From IMG/VR virus record IMGVR_UViG_2671180921_000029, positions 1 through 12,348 of that record: 12,348 nt of DNA; one strand, written 5' to 3'. Shown piece by piece: positions 1,307 to 12,348 of this stretch. Every line of letters begins with the position of its first letter. The stretch's first letter is position 1. The notes beneath the pieces were generated by a model. The model saw nothing but the letters and a program-made list of their open reading frames with translations, searched no databases and was not told the DNA's origin. Source of the stretch: a virus. Lineage: Duplodnaviria > Heunggongvirae > Uroviricota > Caudoviricetes. The translations under genes were made by a program, and so were the position numbers.

Positions 1307-3787
1307 TTAAAAATCAGCCTGACTCGGGATCATTTTTTGTATCGTGGCTGTAACGTATTTTGCCTGGTGACGGGCGTCATCCAGTGCATTGTGGCGCACG
1401 CCTTCGAATGGAATAAAGGTTCTGGCATCAAAGTCGATTGTTTTTCCCAGCTCAACGATTGTGCGTACATCGCGATCGTTGTGGTAGCGCCACGGGCAGG
1501 GGATGTCCAGACGTTCGTATGAGGTGCGCAAAATTGCGTTATCGAAAGTTGCACCATTACCCCATACCTGAACGAATTTTTCATCTGAGTATTCGTTGAT
1601 GAACTCCCGAAACCGCGAAAGGGCATCCTTCAGTTTTACCTGGTCTGTTAAAATGGCAGCTCTGGCTTCACTGGACTGCTTCAGCCACCATTCGATGGTT
1701 CCACCGTCAGGAACAGCCCCTGTATTCATTGCGTCAGTCAGACTGATAACGATATAAAATACTGGCCCGATTTCCCCTGTTTGTGGGTCGAAGAAAACCG
1801 CACCAATAACCACGATGGGCGCATTGGTGTTGGTTCCCATTGTTTCAAGGTCGATCATCAGGTGGTACCACACTCTGCTGGTGGATGTGATAACGTGATG
1901 ACCGTTCACCGCAATTAAGGGAGCTGCCGTCTCGCCAGTTTCATTATCGCTGGCGTGGTCCTGAGCGCTGCCAGCATTCTCCTTGTGTGGATGTTCAGCG
2001 CCTTCCATTTCCTCCGGATCATTTTCCTGAACTTCAACCTGATTCTCTTCATCGAATGTTTCCTGGTATGTTGCGTCGCCCATCACGGCGCCACAATCAG
2101 GGCAGTTGCCGCCACCGCTCTGACCGCAGGCGGTGCAGACTTTTTCCGCTTCCTGTTGCGCTACTGGCTCAGGTTGTTTCGTTTCTGGCTCGTTTTGTAA
2201 CGCATTTTGGCTGTTTTGTTCCGCTTTCTGGTCGTTCTGTTCCGTTTCTTGCTGGTTCTGATTCACTGAATCGCGGGTTTCAATCCCCTTCACCCATTTC
2301 GGATCATTCGGGTCGCTAATCCCTGCAACAAATTCACCACGTGATGCGGCGAGCAACTGATTGGCGTCAGGCTGGCTGATATTGGCTGCCTGCATAATTT
2401 TCTTTACTTCGTCAGCGGTAACTTTTACCGGTTCTGGTTGTTCAGAATTTTGTGCGGTATTTGCATTTTGCGGTAAGCCTGTGTATGTGCCATTTTTTCG
2501 GGCAAAATATTCTTCTTTTGTGATTTCAGTAGCCCCTGCAGTCAGCGCCTTATTCAGACCAGAAAGTTTGTTTGCGCGACCGTATTTTTCGCCATCCTTG
2601 TCGGTGAAGAGGAAGTAGAACGGCCCCTCACGCTCTACAGATGGTTCGATTTCCACTTTGCATTCGGTTTTTTCGTTGTCCGGAATTGCCGTTTCCACTG
2701 CATCAGTTTCTGGTACTGGCGATGAGAGAGTATCAGTTGCGCTCTGATTTGTTCCTTCATCTTCAAACACGCCCTTTGTAGTCAGGTATTCAGTAATGTA
2801 TTTGTTCAGTGCCACAGGGTCTTTGTGAATGTCGATCGGACGTTCACGGACAAGGCCAAAAATAGTCTGGCGGTCGTAGCGAAGGGCATCAGGCTGTTTG
2901 CGCATTGATGCCGAGATACGCTTCCAGTCTTCACGGTCGTTGTCGATAACTTCATTTTTTGCCCAGCGATGGATGCTGCCGTCAATGTTTCCGGCATCCA
3001 CATCACCAGGCCAGAGAGCGTAGGCCAGTTCGTCATCCAGTGTTTTCCATGTCTGCTTGTATTCGCGATGAATGGCAGCAATGACCGGGCTGATTTTTCC
3101 TGTTGAATTTTCAGTGTGCTGTTGATTGGCTCTGGCGCGGGCGAGATCAACAACAGACGTGTATTTTCCGGTTTCCTTGCGTTCACCTTCGCGACGTTTT
3201 TTCCAGATGCGCATCTCTGCCTGAATTTCGGGCCATTTGGCACCTGGCTTACATTTATGCTTAACCCACCCGATGGCATGCAGCTTAAGCTCCGGATACA
3301 TGGCGTTAACTTCTGGCATTTTCATCAACGCTTCAACGATATGTCCGTCGAATGTTGCCATGTCTTCCTGCAACAGTTCCTGCGCACTAATCACCATATC
3401 AACGGTGATGTTTTCACATGTGTCGAACTTAACCATGACAGCGTTCTGTACTTCAGGGGCCAGCTTGTCAAAAGTGACGTTCATCGGATCTGATTCAGTC
3501 TCAACCGGGACAAAGGAAGCAGAGTCCTCATCCCAGCGGTTTTCCTGCATATATTCAGCATCCCAGGAATCGAGGGCAGGGCGGGGTATACCGGGTTTAT
3601 CCTCGCAAACAAGAAATTTATAAGCGCAGTCCTGAGCAGCCGGATATTGCTCCAGGAATTGCCAGGTAAATTTGGCACGGGCGCGGCGTTCGTCACCGGC
3701 TTCAATGGCAGTGGCTACAGCAATTGCACCTTCTTCCTTTATTGCCTGTTCGTCCGGAATGGCGGCGCAAATAAAGACTTTACTCAT
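1307..3787 (-). CDS. Large phage exonuclease (826 aa) with C-terminal DEDDh/DnaQ-like 3'-5' exonuclease domain; often annotated as exodeoxyribonuclease VIII-like in related prophages
   Basis: C-terminal ~187 aa (nt ~1310-1870) carries DEDDh motifs: MIDLETMG, WGNGATFDNAIL, HNALDDARHQ. Central acidic/Gln-rich low-complexity linker and a CxxC-(9)-CxxC zinc ribbon (CTACGQSGGGNCPDCG, nt ~2090-2130). Weak SD (GAGGT, 9-nt spacer) before the ATG at 3787. Confidence 0.8.
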   Translation of the reverse strand: MSKVFICAAIPDEQAIKEEGAIAVATAIEAGDERRARAKFTWQFLEQYPAAQDCAYKFLVCEDKPGIPRPALDSWDAEYMQENRWDEDSASFVPVETESDPMNVTFDKLAPEVQNAVMVKFDTCENITVDMVISAQELLQEDMATFDGHIVEALMKMPEVNAMYPELKLHAIGWVKHKCKPGAKWPEIQAEMRIWKKRREGERKETGKYTSVVDLARARANQQHTENSTGKISPVIAAIHREYKQTWKTLDDELAYALWPGDVDAGNIDGSIHRWAKNEVIDNDREDWKRISASMRKQPDALRYDRQTIFGLVRERPIDIHKDPVALNKYITEYLTTKGVFEDEGTNQSATDTLSSPVPETDAVETAIPDNEKTECKVEIEPSVEREGPFYFLFTDKDGEKYGRANKLSGLNKALTAGATEITKEEYFARKNGTYTGLPQNANTAQNSEQPEPVKVTADEVKKIMQAANISQPDANQLLAASRGEFVAGISDPNDPKWVKGIETRDSVNQNQQETEQNDQKAEQNSQNALQNEPETKQPEPVAQQEAEKVCTACGQSGGGNCPDCGAVMGDATYQETFDEENQVEVQENDPEEMEGAEHPHKENAGSAQDHASDNETGETAAPLIAVNGHHVITSTSRVWYHLMIDLETMGTNTNAPIVVIGAVFFDPQTGEIGPVFYIVISLTDAMNTGAVPDGGTIEWWLKQSSEARAAILTDQVKLKDALSRFREFINEYSDEKFVQVWGNGATFDNAILRTSYERLDIPCPWRYHNDRDVRTIVELGKTIDFDARTFIPFEGVRHNALDDARHQAKYVTATIQKMIPSQADF

Positions 3788-3910
3788 TTTGTTTTAACCT
3801 CATGACATATTTAAGGATGAACAAATCCCTGCCATTGCTGGCATATAAGAATCAAATCTGATGTATTCATTAAGCTGAATGTCGTATTGTGGCAGTTATT
3901 TTATTACTGC

Positions 3911-4132
3911 TCACCATGACTCTGCTTTTACAGGTAAACCATCACGACCAAGGAAGACTTTAATCATGGTTTCCTTAATACAGTGTTGTGTGGAAAAATC
4001 ACGAATATAGAGCCGTTGTTTTTTAATGTTGTTTACCGAAGCAATATATGTTCTTCCTTTATGAATAACATAATCACCGGGAGTCACGCACTGACGAGGA
4101 ATCTCATCAGTTCCGAAGTGATGAGCAATCAT
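3911..4132 (-). CDS. Hypothetical small protein (73 aa); start moved to the internal ATG at 4132
   Basis: ORF-track ORF 3911..4144. The ATG at 4130-4132 is preceded by a strong SD (aaATGGAGGTaattATG), whereas the upstream ATG at 4144 has none. No recognisable motif. Confidence 0.55.
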
Positions 4133-4697
4133 AATTACCTCCATTTTTACAAATGAACTTTGTTGATGCGGTGCCTGGTGCCTCCAGGTGACGTTAACCA
4201 GTTAACAATTAATGCCGGATACAGAGAATCCACCCATAACACTGTTTTTGGTTTTAACTGTTCCGCGTGCGCTTAGCCGCATTCACCGCATCACAAAATT
4301 CACTTTAAAAAGGGCGGCAGAGCAGTCACGGAGTAAAACTGATACCGCCAAACGCCACCAGAAAATTGATAACAGAGGGCGTTGTAGCGGGGTTGTCACT
4401 TAAGCGTATGGTCAACCTGACAACCCGGTGTCCTCAACGGGGAAGGAATAACCCCGCCATACTTACCGCCGCGCCATTTCGCGGAGTGCCACAACCGGAA
4501 GCGCACGGTCGACGAAAATTTAACGACAGGCTATCTATGAACCAGCAACCTCGCCGTGCGCTTTCGCGTTATGCTCTGACTTTTCAGAGAAATATCCTTT
4601 CAGTAAACTGTCAGTGCCGGATGCTCACCCGTGTCCGGCGCACGCACTCCACTTCACCCGTGGAGAACTCCTTAATTACCAACCCTCAGGAGGGTGA

Positions 4698-4931
4698 ATG
4701 TTAAAATCAACTCTTATTGCTAAATGCCTTTATCAAAATCGCATGGTAAGCAGCATTTCAATAGGCGAGTCTGCAGTTAAAAGTATTTTCGAAGAGTACT
4801 TTCCCGGGCATGATTTTAATAAATGGAATACCAAATTACCGCCAGCAGTTTCAACGCGTATTCTGAAAGCAACTGAAAGAGCAAGTACAATTCGCGTTAA
4901 CTATTTCATTAAAGATTTGTGGGATCTTTGA
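4698..4931 (+). CDS. Hypothetical protein (77 aa) on the strand opposite the leftward operon; 3' end overlaps the convergent gene at 4909..5316 by 23 nt
   Basis: Near-consensus SD (cAGGAGGgtgaATG). Sits in an AT-rich segment that differs by eye from the GC-rich flank to its left. No recognisable family. Confidence 0.5.
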   Translation: MLKSTLIAKCLYQNRMVSSISIGESAVKSIFEEYFPGHDFNKWNTKLPPAVSTRILKATERASTIRVNYFIKDLWDL

Positions 4932-5316
4932 TATCCACAGAGCCTAAAGTATGTGCATATGGATGTGCTATTGTGCGCCCTCGCAGATTTGCATCATTTT
5001 CTAAATTCACTGAACGAAACAGGGCATCAACAAGGCTCTGTACAATGCAAAGGCAATCGAAGACTGTCGCCGTTTCTGTTTTGATTGATGAAAGAACATG
5101 GCCATTCACGCAAACAGAAATTACCCGTTTATTAACATCGCTTTCCTGCTTTTGATTATCAGAACCATATAGCCCAGAAAAAGCATTGCGCACATTACGA
5201 ACCATATTATCGATGGTTTCTTTTTTGGTGTATGCCGGGTCAATTTTCACCAGACTATCACCGAGAGTCGTTGCAGCAATTGTCTGGATTTCTTTTGGTA
5301 AATCTTTAAATTCCAT
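4909..5316 (-). CDS. Hypothetical protein (135 aa)
   Basis: ORF with SD-like ACGAGG 7 nt before the ATG. AT-rich codon composition like its neighbours. No recognisable motif. Confidence 0.6.
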   Translation of the reverse strand: MEFKDLPKEIQTIAATTLGDSLVKIDPAYTKKETIDNMVRNVRNAFSGLYGSDNQKQESDVNKRVISVCVNGHVLSSIKTETATVFDCLCIVQSLVDALFRSVNLENDANLRGRTIAHPYAHTLGSVDIKDPTNL

Positions 5317-5338
5317 TATTAGCCTCGTTGGTTAGCTA

Positions 5339-5557
5339 TTAACGTGGGTATGTAATCATTCTGGCAATGCTTAATGCCGCTGCTTTTTCCAGATTGGTGA
5401 TATCCTGCTCCAGAGCGGACAGATTTTCAGCCTGCTTAGCCCTGGCTTCATTGGCCCATTTCAGATCCTGCGCTGCATTAATTTTCTGGCGCATCCACTC
5501 ATAAAGTTCATCATCGGTATAGTCTGGCGCGATGATGACGGGTTCTCGTTTCTGCAT
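5339..5557 (-). CDS. Hypothetical small protein (72 aa), probably helical
   Basis: Strong SD (CAAGGAGccgacATG). Stop lies 22 nt upstream of the next gene's start, suggesting co-transcription with 4909..5316. Confidence 0.6.
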   Translation of the reverse strand: MQKREPVIIAPDYTDDELYEWMRQKINAAQDLKWANEARAKQAENLSALEQDITNLEKAAALSIARMITYPR

Positions 5558-5649
5558 GTCGGCTCCTTGTGGTTAGCGTTGCCTGCTTTTAACCACGTCA
5601 GGCGAGGTGGTATCCTCTGAGGGATCTGTTACTCGAGAGGAAATTGGTT

Positions 5650-5850
5650 ATGAATACAATCAAGTTTTCTTGCCCAGAATGTGGCGGCGAAGTCTTTGAC
5701 ACATCCTTTAAACCGCATGGCTCTGACAGTTTCGCGGGAGCCATCTGCAAAAATTGTGGTCACCTTGTAACTGAAGATGAGTCCTCGCAGTTCGATGACG
5801 AAATCGTTGACAATATCTTCGGTGCACTCACCAGAGACTTTCTGAAGTAA
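5650..5850 (+). CDS. Small zinc-ribbon protein (66 aa; CPEC-x22-CKNC)
   Basis: Two CxxC pairs (KFSCPECGG ... AICKNCGH) typical of a zinc ribbon. GAGAGG SD 9 nt before the ATG at 5650 (the ORF track starts 6 nt earlier at a TTG). A perfect hairpin plus T-tract 46 nt downstream is oriented for this strand. Conflicts with the overlapping minus-strand ORF 5629..5985. Confidence 0.5.
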   Translation: MNTIKFSCPECGGEVFDTSFKPHGSDSFAGAICKNCGHLVTEDESSQFDDEIVDNIFGALTRDFLK

Positions 5851-5895
5851 AGGCGCATACCGCTTAGTTACCGCTCTGATAACTCTTACCTGTCC

Positions 5896-5941
5896 GGCAA
5901 TGGCGCTGATGTCAATATAAAGCGCCATTGCCGCTTCTTTG
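5896..5941 (+). terminator. Candidate rho-independent terminator: perfect 12-bp inverted repeat with 13-nt loop, followed by a T-rich tract
   Basis: GGCAATGGCGCT (5896-5907) pairs with AGCGCCATTGCC (5921-5932), followed by gCTTCTTTg. The T-tract is present only in the plus-strand orientation. Confidence 0.5.
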
Positions 5942-6159
5942 CCGATCCCGGGATGCCTTCCATTCTGATGTTTGACTTCGCCCACTGAGAAACCCTCTGT
6001 TTCCCCTTAACGCCGGGGTAGCGGAACAAAAACCTGCTGCATAGTTATTAAAGTTGAACCCTGCCGTCATGTTCTTACGCCTCGGGCTGGCTACTTAACC
6101 CCTGACCACTGCCGGGTAACTCGAAGTATTGCCCTGCGTTCTGTGGGGCGGGGTGGGTT

Positions 6160-6196
6160 GGTATTTTTAGTTTAATAAACATTAAACTTAAGTCAA
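6160..6196 (-). promoter_or_regulatory. PL-like leftward early promoter (-35 TTGACT, 16-nt spacer, -10 TAAACT read on the minus strand), an inverted copy of the PR-like element
   Basis: Plus 6191-6196 agtcaa and 6169-6174 agttta are the reverse complements of the TTGACT and TAAACT hexamers at 7184-7189 and 7208-7213. The surrounding ~30 bp is an inverted near-copy of 7175-7205. Confidence 0.4.
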
Positions 6197-6280
6197 GCAA
6201 AAACTAAACCGTGGGGCGTAACAAACACAACGCTTTTGGTAAAGTCGTTGCGGTTGTTATGTTTCTATTGGTAGTTAAAG

Positions 6281-6559
6281 TTAGGGAAACTGGCGTCTTG
6301 CGTGGATCACGTTTACTACTTCAACGCTTGATGTTGTTACGCGGTATAGAATTATATAGTTAGGGTGGGCCACAATCTCACGCAAGCCAGGTACTCTGTC
6401 GCTTGGTGGGTATAAATACGGATGTTCGGATAACGGCAGCACACAACCCCTTAATCGCTGCCATAAGCGTTCAGCCGCATCTATGTCGAAACGAGCAATA
6501 TAACTGGTTATATCATCTAGGTCGGTATCTGCGTTTTCAAGCCATAACACGGGTAACAT
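6281..6559 (-). CDS. parE2: ParE/RelE-family type II toxin (92 aa), ParE2-like
   Basis: Start moved to the internal ATG (MLPVLWLENADTDLDDITSYI...), giving the canonical 92-aa size. C-terminus LREIVAHPNYIILYRVTTSSVEVVNVIHARRQFP is typical of ParE/RelE. Start lies 1 nt after the upstream antitoxin stop. The sequence matches my recollection of E. coli O157 ParE2. Confidence 0.85.
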   Translation of the reverse strand: MLPVLWLENADTDLDDITSYIARFDIDAAERLWQRLRGCVLPLSEHPYLYPPSDRVPGLREIVAHPNYIILYRVTTSSVEVVNVIHARRQFP

Positions 6560-6560
6560 T

Positions 6561-6752
6561 TTACTGCTTGCTCCGTTCCTTGCGCATTCTAGCAAAGCGT
6601 TCTGCCATTCTGCGCTCAACTTCGTCATGGGGAATTGCTGGGCGCGGATCTGCAAGGCTCGTTGCTACTTTCGCACGCAGCCATTCGTTGTAACTGTTTT
6701 CTTGTTCAATGGTTTCAAATTCAGAAACCATTGGTGAAAGGGCTCTATTCAT
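6561..6752 (-). CDS. paaA2: PaaA2-type antitoxin (63 aa)
   Basis: Internal start MNRALSPMVSEFETIEQENSYNEWLRAKV... preceded by a strong SD (GGAGGaaacATG). Size and sequence match my recollection of PaaA2. Lies immediately upstream of the ParE toxin on the same strand. Confidence 0.85.
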   Translation of the reverse strand: MNRALSPMVSEFETIEQENSYNEWLRAKVATSLADPRPAIPHDEVERRMAERFARMRKERSKQ

Positions 6753-6772
6753 GTTTCCTCCGGTTTTATAAC

Positions 6773-7144
6773 TTAGGCGCGGCGGCATTTTTGCGCCGCA
6801 ATCCATCTCGCTATGAGATCTTCCATTGATTCTTTTTTCTGCTTTAACTCGCTGATTATCTGGCGTTGCTCATCCTCAGGGAAGGCTGAAAAAATCTGCA
6901 ATAATTCCAGTTGATTAGACGTTAACCCTGCATGTGGTGGAGAAATCTCCGGTTGTTCTGCGTATTCCGCATCCAGATACCCTTCCGGCATCCCGTATGT
7001 TTGCTCTATTCTTCTGGCAGCCTTTTCTCCAAACGAGGCCCTCCCACTCATTAGTTGAGATAGGTAGCTCTTCTCTTTGGGTGGCAGAGTTTTATCTTTA
7101 AACCACTCCTTGAGACGTAAACGGCGAATTTCTTTTTTCTGCAT
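6773..7144 (-). CDS. paaR2: PaaR2-type HTH transcriptional regulator (123 aa from the ATG at 7144), in the cI-repressor position
   Basis: XRE-type HTH-like segment (KSYLSQLMSGRASFGEKAARRIEQ). Divergent from a Cro-like gene and first gene of the paaA2-parE2 operon. Start ambiguous: ATG at 7144 (weak SD) or GTG at 7207, which would place the start inside the promoter/operator repeats. Confidence 0.75.
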   Translation of the reverse strand: MQKKEIRRLRLKEWFKDKTLPPKEKSYLSQLMSGRASFGEKAARRIEQTYGMPEGYLDAEYAEQPEISPPHAGLTSNQLELLQIFSAFPEDEQRQIISELKQKKESMEDLIARWIAAQKCRRA

Positions 7145-11980: not shown

Positions 11981-12192
11981 TTTTATATTGGCGAGGTGAC
12001 GGGAGTTAAGTAGAATTGCTGCGGGTGCTTGAGGCTGTCTGCCTCAGGCATGAACACCAAAAGGCAGATAGAGAAAAGCCCCAGTTAACATTACGCGTCC
12101 TGCAAGACGCTTAACATTAATCTGAGGCCATATCTATGCTCTACACACGTAGGTTAGCCTCTTACGTGCCGAAAGGCAAGGAGAAGCAGGCT

Positions 12193-12348
12193 ATGAAGCA
12201 GCAAAAGGCGATGCTAATCGCCCTGATCGTCATCTGTTTAACCGTCATAGTGACGGCACTGGTAACGAGGAAAGACCTCTGCGAGGTACGAATCCGAACC
12301 GGCCAGACGGAGGTCGCTGTCTTCACAGCTTACGAACCTGAGGAGTAA
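12193..12348 (+). CDS. hok: Hok/Gef-family type I toxin (51 aa), HokD/RelF-like; stop codon is the last triplet of the window
   Basis: MKQQKAMLIALIVICLTVIVTALVTRKDLCEVRIRTGQTEVAVFTAYEPEE has the Hok architecture (N-terminal TM helix, then RKxLCE...). SD AAGGAG 9 nt upstream. The ORF track shows an in-frame 19-codon upstream extension from 12136. Confidence 0.85.
   Translation: MKQQKAMLIALIVICLTVIVTALVTRKDLCEVRIRTGQTEVAVFTAYEPEE

Follow-up and report, generated by a model that had tools for sequence, protein, structure and literature searches.

The closest described relative of the locus considered here is the dicBF operon of the Qin prophage of Escherichia coli K-12 (ydfA-ydfB-ydfC-dicF-dicB-ydfD), whose toxicity has been described, in which ydfC is a core gene, and whose long untranslated region (UTR) is processed by RNase E and RNase III (PMC5069750). 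Two further described systems are relevant to it, namely the PaaR2-PaaA2-ParE2 system (PMC8630535) and the prophage-expressed antisense elements that take part in exclusion, as in sas/sieB of phage P22 and STnc6030 of BTP1 (PMC12197685). The DNA analysed, referred to below as the window, is a stretch of 12,348 nucleotides (nt) from the Caudoviricetes record IMGVR_UViG_2671180921_000029 of IMG/VR, and it holds the immunity and early-left region of a lambdoid E. coli prophage similar to CP-933P and Qin. Its positions 4400-6400 are 99.5% identical to phage Evi and 99.9% identical to one chicken E. coli chromosome. Based on a match to the small RNA DicF, the 96-97% identity of ydfC and of the adjacent spacer to Qin, the RefSeq annotation and the published operon (PMC5069750), this region is the promoter-proximal part of a leftward, P_L-like operon of the dicBF type. 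The original prediction, made from the sequence, had singled out four small open reading frames (ORFs) here as an AT-rich cluster without recognisable families and as a candidate for an undescribed accessory system. All four ORFs were recovered at the predicted coordinates; two of them, gene A (77 amino acids, 4698-4931, plus strand) and the gene of a zinc ribbon protein (ZnR), run against the leftward operon as proposed, and the group lies, also as proposed, between an 826-residue exonuclease gene (1307-3787) and the operon promoter region (about 6170-6196). Gene A and the minus-strand gene B (135 amino acids, 4909-5316) are the principal subject of this work, as A and the conserved core of B form an obligate pair that is almost certainly a working two-part system. 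They are one of two sense/antisense gene couples in the region, the other being ZnR and an ORF on its opposite strand.

The case for such a pair comes from the genomic neighbourhoods of homologues, which were counted over IMG/VR contigs and contigs found by exact protein look-up. A convergent B core was present in 87 of the 89 loci found via A, the two exceptions being one contig end and one rearranged copy, and A was present in 21 of the 23 loci retrieved via the B core, where the exceptions (L102 and L116) carry a different gene in its place, as described below. The combined co-occurrence is thus 108 of 112 loci (about 96%), with the same geometry at 55-60% protein identity, and the paired loci span Klebsiella, Serratia, Yersinia, Dickeya and Citrobacter. 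In the window the 3' ends of the two genes overlap by 23 nt (4909-4931), in agreement with the original prediction, and the stop codon of B falls within the Ile-Lys codons of A. The overlap is mostly 23 nt elsewhere as well, and 26 nt in three loci in which A is one codon longer. Where A uses ATT AAA the stop codon of B is TAA, and where it uses ATC AAA the stop codon is TGA, at an unchanged position; since synonymous sites vary while the position of the stop is fixed, it is the geometry and not the RNA sequence that is conserved. A remote A relative (L204) and a divergent A of Citrobacter (L202) likewise face B-like ORFs. The Citrobacter gene (78 amino acids, 2870-3106, minus strand) was missed by the gene caller, is preceded by the conserved promoter block discussed below, and overlaps the 3' end of a fusion of a ClpX-type zinc finger with B by 51 nt.

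Both A and B are real genes, as indicated by the confident structure prediction and the many clusters of A and by the 92 matches that make up the B core family. The A protein is basic (isoelectric point (pI) 9.5), soluble and all-helical, its predicted structure reaching a predicted local distance difference test score (pLDDT) of 96. An exhaustive profile search recovered 163 clusters at 50% identity, nearly all of them stand-alone proteins of 75-80 residues, and no domain fusions. Full-length homologues with 55-72% identity were found in Klebsiella, Raoultella, Dickeya, Xenorhabdus, Serratia, Yersinia, Morganella and Salmonella; the N-terminus is invariant, and third codon positions have diverged by about 0.5-0.6 at approximately 60% protein identity. 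Within E. coli the A reading frame is intact in nearly all of 26 haplotypes and nonsense alleles are absent, while indels occur in four E. coli copies, one of them within A (L095).

The B protein (pI 5.9) begins with an N-terminal domain specific to E. coli (codons 1-58, 5143-5316), which is followed by a conserved C-terminal core of about 75 residues (codons ~59-135, 4909-5142) that bears the motifs VNG, AVAADY and LExEANASGKT and stands alone in most genera. The core is small, has no enzyme-like or membrane features, and is modelled as a beta-hairpin followed by two helices (pLDDT 70-79). Other N-terminal additions to the core are found elsewhere, either a ClpX-type C4 zinc finger or a YdfC-like segment. 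The latter is fused ahead of the B core in Yersinia (L011; 38% identity over 60 residues, E 5e-11) and in L118, and it adjoins the A/B pair in the Citrobacter locus L202; these fusions suggest that YdfC shares a functional neighbourhood with B. Among E. coli haplotypes the variable sites of the N-terminal domain are distributed as 20/13/11 over codon positions 1/2/3, with no third-position bias, and those of the core as 16/12/23, with such a bias, and the absence of bias suggests that the N-terminal domain evolves fast. A role of B as a lambda N-type antiterminator, considered because it would be the first gene of the P_L operon, was set aside, as B is not basic and the aligned N-termini contain no arginine-rich motif; nut sites were not systematically searched.

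The transcription signals around the pair were mapped in two prophages from outside E. coli, one of Klebsiella (L004) and one of Serratia (L010). In each, two operator-like palindromes separate the repressor gene from cro and two more separate it from B, and a P_L-like promoter overlaps the B-side set. These positions make B the first P_L gene in the two prophages and place A antisense to P_L transcription. Across genera, A is preceded by a conserved block (TTcACC, 16 nt, TGG-TATCTT) that ends 30-33 nt before its ATG and is followed by a conserved leader, CACACAACCAAGAAGG. The strict form of this block was identified in 22 of the 29 distinct non-E. coli sequences upstream of A; of the seven sequences missed, five differ from it by one base and that of L081 by more, and no block can be recognised in L204. 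The block looks like an extended -10 sigma-70 promoter and is referred to here as the putative promoter P_anti. A copy in the window (5589-5616, plus strand; TTAACC, 16 nt, TGG TATCCT; pattern match 5592-5616) stands before ZnR, with its -35 element at 5589-5594, its -10 element at 5611-5616 and 33 nt to the ATG at 5650. For A in E. coli, a weak promoter-like sequence was noted by eye within the spacer between ydfC and dicF (4592-4620, plus strand; TTTTCA, 17 nt, TAAACT; 8 of 12 matches); the sequence is also preserved in L200, and in E. coli it could drive transcription of A, with an RNA antisense to the dicBF leader as a further product. Between the convergent genes, no sequence resembling a terminator was detected. 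The sole terminator-like hairpin on the plus strand downstream of A is at 5362-5379, inside the 3' end of ydfC, and an A transcript ending there would be antisense to all of B.

The two loci with B but without A point to an exchange of genes at this position. In L102 and L116 a 66-residue homologue of ZnR (56-63% identity) lies opposite B in the place of A, behind the same block and leader. Taken together with the copy of the block before ZnR in the window, this replacement shows that ZnR is an alternative cargo of the antisense slot otherwise held by A. The window gene (5650-5850, plus strand) encodes 66 residues from its ATG, although it had been listed as 68 residues from a TTG at 5644. Its product is acidic (pI 4.4) and carries two CxxC knuckles (CPECG...CKNCG), of which CPEC and CKNC are invariant among the homologues. 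It belongs to the ECs_2282 family, a family without described function (NCBIfam NF047912; 57.4 bits against a cut-off of 37, profile positions 1-56 of 60).

In the window ZnR lies wholly inside an ORF on the opposite strand, ORF C (99 amino acids, 5629-5928, minus strand, PHROG 21318), which reads in the operon direction, and the second codon positions of the two frames face each other. ORF C was at first regarded as a mere shadow of ZnR, a view that polymorphism in E. coli supported. Among 33 E. coli haplotypes the variable sites of ZnR are distributed as 8/3/20 over codon positions 1/2/3; of the 20 changes at third positions, 16 leave the ZnR residue unaltered, and nearly all of them alter C. 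This pattern favours ZnR as the selected frame, and the C frame within the overlap looks neutral. Two independent nonsense alleles of ZnR, G5689T (E14*, O157:H7) and G5779T (E44*), are present in E. coli and were seen in L012, L014 and IMG/VR copies; in genomes with the G5689T allele RefSeq annotates the antisense 99-residue ORF instead of ZnR.

The shadow view lost ground after a deeper comparison, which found an open, extended and codon-periodic C frame in five lineages. Six copies (the window, L198, L102, L116, L199 and Klebsiella phage KP12), which represent five divergent lineages, have a C frame that is open over the full length of ZnR. When four ZnR proteins were recoded synonymously, the antisense frame stayed open in 4-12% of cases for each of them and in 0 of 5000 for all four together. 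In addition, C runs on for about 27 codons past ZnR, where both a motif and the start are conserved, and the pairwise differences in this extension (58/50/92 by C codon position) are concentrated at third positions, though the six pairs come from four sequences and are not independent. In L116, B is fused in frame to C. Finally, the third-position divergence of ZnR is 0.41 at 62% identity, versus 0.52-0.58 for the singly coding A at similar identity. This comparison suggests that both frames are maintained, and ORF C is probably translated. If both C and ZnR are translated, they would be among the few antisense overlapping pairs with comparative, and not just expression, support. Gene callers report either C or ZnR and never both, and they sometimes miss A, as in L202.

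A model that accounts for these arrangements, to which a probability of roughly 45% may be assigned, is that of an antisense effector which is on in the lysogen and is neutralised by its lytic-phase partner B. In the lysogen, where P_L is repressed, A (or ZnR) would be made from its own promoter. Upon induction or infection B would be the earliest P_L product, with C and YdfC switched on along with it, and P_L transcription would run antisense through A or ZnR and silence A. The A and B proteins would act on each other as cognate partners, A being an effector of the prophage state, for exclusion or host modulation, and B the lytic-phase neutraliser that enables phage development. This polarity follows the logic of convergent colicin and immunity genes and that of the sieB/esc-sas system of P22 and lambda, for which antisense control is documented. 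The sieB system likewise comprises an accessory gene within the P_L operon region and regulation involving antisense RNA, and it combines prophage-state expression with a lytic escape function, which protects the resident phage from its own exclusion; the window would match it in architecture only, having a gene antisense to P_L behind a promoter-like block of its own. There are also clear differences. The antidote of SieB is an in-frame internal product and its switch is a processed antisense RNA, whereas the window pair consists of two convergent genes with a 3' overlap; moreover, there is no sequence or fold similarity between the systems, and exclusion by A is hypothetical. SieB is a membrane protein, and A, B, C and ZnR match only PHROGs of unknown function and no SieB model of Pfam or NCBIfam.

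Several observations weigh against this model. The A protein is soluble and basic, unlike SieB, and neither A nor B has a PADLOC, Pfam, NCBIfam or fold match. The conserved block is a putative promoter, recognised by its consensus-like sequence, and A of the E. coli window has no such block, as only 13 nt of the cassette precede its ATG and are themselves preceded by the Qin-type spacer. No B-like partner is visible for a remote A relative in L203, a short contig rich in GC. Within E. coli, A is only weakly constrained by purifying selection (variable sites 8/4/7 by codon position, with 7 synonymous and 12 non-synonymous changes). Lastly, the tight linkage of A and B, taken by itself, might in part be due to the shared ancestry of a compact segment. 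A broader generalisation of the model appears more doubtful than the model itself. It would posit, for lambdoid prophages of Enterobacterales, a hitherto undescribed 'antisense slot' at the head of the P_L operon, with a conserved outward-facing promoter and a swappable cargo (A or ZnR) that is expressed in the lysogen and opposed to the first lytic gene (B or a B-C fusion). The resulting pairs would then represent a new effector-antidote family that is coupled to lysogeny and lysis and made up of proteins without known fold, and the C/ZnR version a maintained, fully overlapping pair.

The reading that survives best beside the favoured one reverses the polarity, so that the system would be a leak-guard with similarity to toxin-antitoxin pairs. 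B, or the toxic operon that it heads (kil, dicB, dicF), would be harmful in the lytic phase, and A or ZnR would be the antidote; made constitutively in the lysogen from the antisense promoter, it would neutralise B arising from a leaky P_L, and convergent transcription would further damp the leak. This reversed polarity is judged unlikely to be the right one, and yet it is nearly as plausible as the favoured polarity. Its architecture is that of convergent colicin and immunity genes. In the operons of pore-forming colicins, an inducible gene under SOS or repressor control faces a small, constitutively promoted immunity gene at its 3' end. The likeness extends to a polymorphic locus with cognate pairs and with a conserved N-terminal and a variable C-terminal region. 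The E. coli N-terminal domain of B is found, too, at the start of proteins whose C-terminal parts are unrelated; for instance, in L200 (2013-2849) the slot after ydfC holds a 208-residue protein with this domain and an unrelated C-terminal part, and a different, unrelated convergent gene of 69 residues abuts its stop codon. Neither of these two proteins has a Pfam match. The same N-terminal domain being joined there to another C-terminal part and facing another convergent gene, the slot after ydfC is polymorphic in the manner of loci that hold cognate effector and immunity pairs, which is in line with the favoured model too. The lack of third-position bias in the N-terminal domain of B (20/13/11) is also in line with the reversed polarity, as is the presence downstream of the division inhibitors DicF and KilR in an operon type of described toxicity (PMC5069750). 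On the other hand, A and B are small, cytoplasmic and unrelated to colicins, and across genera B mostly has no N-terminal domain at all. The core of B, moreover, is small and not basic, and it shows no enzyme-like or membrane features. A type II toxin-antitoxin system such as PaaR2-PaaA2-ParE2 would share with A/B the presence of two small, linked, cognate prophage genes, one product being basic and the other neutral to acidic; however, every locus examined has A and B in convergent orientation with overlapping 3' ends, the two are not co-transcribed, and no DNA-binding antitoxin domain is present, so that the classical co-directional and autoregulated layout is absent. No match of A or B to toxin, antitoxin or defence profiles was found in Pfam, NCBIfam and PADLOC, although the neighbouring ParE/PaaA2 pair does match.

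A mainly cis-regulatory role would make the proteins secondary. The antisense promoter would face P_L, and convergent transcription or RNA duplexes with the P_L/dicBF mRNA would adjust the switch between lysis and lysogeny or keep the toxic early-left operon silent. The preservation of the block and the 5' UTR at the nucleotide level across genera while the cargo alternates between A and ZnR fits such a role, as do the missing terminator-like site between the convergent genes and the precedent of regulatory prophage antisense RNAs. The degree of protein conservation nevertheless renders it less likely, and it is regarded here as quite improbable. A is strongly conserved as a protein, with an invariant N-terminus, a pLDDT of 96 and a third-position divergence of 0.5-0.6; ZnR keeps its four cysteines and accumulates synonymous-biased substitutions; and E. 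coli A has no block and yet remains intact in nearly all of the 26 haplotypes.

Less probable again is the view put forward in the original prediction that all four ORFs constitute one horizontally acquired AT-rich system with accessory, exclusion or anti-defence functions. It draws on the association of the parts across genera (YdfC-B fusions, ZnR replacing A, and C fused to B) and on the position of the locus in the classical accessory region of lambdoid P_L operons, where sieB- and kil-type genes had been expected; the latter placement is supported by the present analysis. The AT-richness, however, is confined to the part that holds A and B. Positions 4685-5318 have a GC content of 0.391, and only 0.24% of the 634-bp intervals within the 12.3 kb have an equal or lower value, the lowest of all (0.388) starting at 4688. 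By comparison, ydfC (0.475) and the ZnR gene (0.453) are at about the mean of the window (0.475), and thus the predicted AT-rich segment shrinks to A and B; the GC-rich segment predicted to its left does exist (0.536 at 4364-4684). The same interval 4685-5318 is an exact 634-bp indel relative to K-12 Qin, located 20 nt past the ydfC stop codon. In a blastn comparison with Qin (L003), window positions 5557-5319 (ydfC and 20 nt) correspond to 2324-2562 and positions 4684-4152 (spacer and dicF) to 2563-3094, and the adjoining of these matches on both sides defines the indel as a cassette that holds A and B and nothing else. This A/B cassette occurs in operons with either ydfA/ydfB or the C/ZnR module upstream. 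One E. coli sequence (L016) combines ydfA-ydfB-ydfC with A/B, and another (L015) has ZnR and ydfC without A/B, from which it follows that the cassette and the ZnR module occur independently in E. coli. Furthermore, ydfC is kept in the dicBF operon even without either module, as in K-12 Qin, and no known defence system was matched. The predicted single cluster therefore does not hold for E. coli, while its parts are linked across genera, and it is the A/B pair, found together in about 96% of more than 100 loci and without a family, defence-system or fold match, that remains a good candidate for an undescribed two-component accessory system.

That the ORFs are chance neighbours in a mosaic prophage, with the overlap a product of compaction and C a mere shadow, may be all but dismissed, as weak constraint on A within E. 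coli, a neutral-looking C frame inside the overlap and the general frequency of shadow ORFs where second codon positions face each other are outweighed by the 108 of 112 loci with A and B together in identical geometry at 55-60% protein identity (which already largely refutes it for A/B) and by a C frame that is open in six copies of five lineages, against a chance of 4-12% per lineage, and continues into a codon-periodic conserved extension.

As for what was known before, the dicBF backbone is described, ZnR belongs to an uncharacterised family, and A, B and C are recorded as hypothetical PHROGs (10348 for A and 1363 for B). Systems of this kind, in which an accessory gene of a prophage lies antisense to P_L and has a partner in the lytic phase, are already known as well. 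The claim that none of the four ORFs has a recognisable family fails in part, as the 72-residue ORF is YdfC, ZnR passes the NF047912 cut-off, and A and B fall into PHROGs of unknown function. Beyond such PHROGs, A, B and C have no Pfam or NCBIfam match, and no fold match was obtained for the model of A or, in the PDB, for that of the B core. Searches with the defence profiles of PADLOC-DB v2 gave no match for A, B, YdfC or C and marginal ones only for ZnR (E 0.0015-0.009). No description was found in the literature of the A/B pairing, the antisense placement of ZnR, the shared antisense block, the exchange of A and ZnR, the YdfC-B fusions or the conserved ORF opposite ZnR, and the CP-933P paper covers the repressor switch and the toxin-antitoxin system and not these small genes. 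Most E. coli genomes carry a dicBF/Qin-type operon, and the A/B cassette occurs in 677 of 5426 complete ones (about 12%), including pathogenic strains of O157:H7, O26, O111 and O145, while the small genes of the cassette region are all annotated as hypothetical. If the favoured model is correct, the pair would offer a compact new example of a prophage that separates its lysogen-state from its lytic-state functions, and with either polarity it would be a candidate for an exclusion/self-immunity system or a leak-guard built on new protein folds.

The remainder of the operon resembles that of Qin in ydfC, the structured spacer, DicF, a fragment of the leader, a DicA/PaaR2-type repressor upstream and a cell-division inhibitor gene after DicF. 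It differs in the C/ZnR module instead of ydfA/ydfB, the 634-bp A/B cassette, a KilR-type gene instead of dicB, and a PaaA2-ParE2 pair between repressor and operon. The DicA/PaaR2-like repressor gene (6773-7144, minus strand) and the PaaA2-ParE2 toxin-antitoxin pair (6281-6752, minus strand; Pfam and NCBIfam matches) together form a three-component PaaR2-PaaA2-ParE2 locus as in CP-933P (6281-7144, minus strand), placed between the repressor and the dicBF-type operon. A promoter scan identified, by consensus match only, a putative operon promoter on the minus strand at 6196-6169 (TTGACT, 16 nt, TAAACT). The leader extends down to 6000 (promoter and leader 6000-6196), and its last part (6027-6000) is a 28-nt blastn match to Qin 1971-1998, the sequence immediately upstream of ydfA. 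Apart from this leader fragment there is no Qin similarity down to ydfC; ydfA and ydfB are absent as promoter-proximal genes, and 5558-5999 holds the C/ZnR module in their place. The ydfC gene (5339-5557, minus strand) is 97.5% identical to Qin ydfC in nucleotide sequence, is annotated as 'protein YdfC' in RefSeq and encodes a coiled-coil-like protein of 72 residues.

Beyond the A/B cassette, the GC-rich spacer between ydfC and dicF (4364-4684, minus strand) is 96.6% identical to Qin and corresponds to the long UTR of the dicBF transcript; it appears structured, with a minimum free energy of -131 kcal/mol for 4364-4700 on the minus strand (z -3.4 against shuffled sequences). The next operon element is the small RNA DicF with its terminator hairpin (4312-4363, minus strand), matched in full length by Rfam RF00039 (76.4 bits against a gathering score of 48, E 8e-16). 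Neither DicF nor the KilR-type FtsZ inhibitor gene that follows (3911-4132, minus strand; NF008465, E 2.3e-41, residues 5-77; PHROG 294, Kil) nor ORF C had been noticed in the original prediction. The KilR-type gene occupies the position of dicB in Qin; dicB itself was not found after dicF in the window, and it is present in the close relatives L001 and L012. In these closest chromosomal relatives DicF is followed by dicB and a DUF1482 gene, versus the KilR-type gene here, and 3872-4152 is a mosaic junction. A sub-threshold match to STnc100 was seen at 4125-4310 on the minus strand (34 bits versus a gathering score of 47). The exonuclease gene (minus strand) comes next, and then xis and int.

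A DicF-like RNA was also detected in the Klebsiella locus L004 (3874-3922, minus strand; Rfam 29.9 bits, E 0.011, below the gathering score), directly downstream of A/B with respect to P_L. Its terminator hairpin is similar to that of DicF and its 5' region is different, and the element may be a divergent member of the DicF family; the order of B/A followed by a DicF-like RNA is thus not peculiar to E. coli. In the Yersinia locus L011, a tRNA-like match with a 69-nt insertion (3497-3624, minus strand, 38.5 bits) lies between A/B and the next early gene. A complete hok/sok-type module (12023-12198, plus strand; Rfam sok, 117.8 bits, E 7e-27), together with a small hydrophobic Hok-like ORF at 12136-12348, lies at the window's right end.

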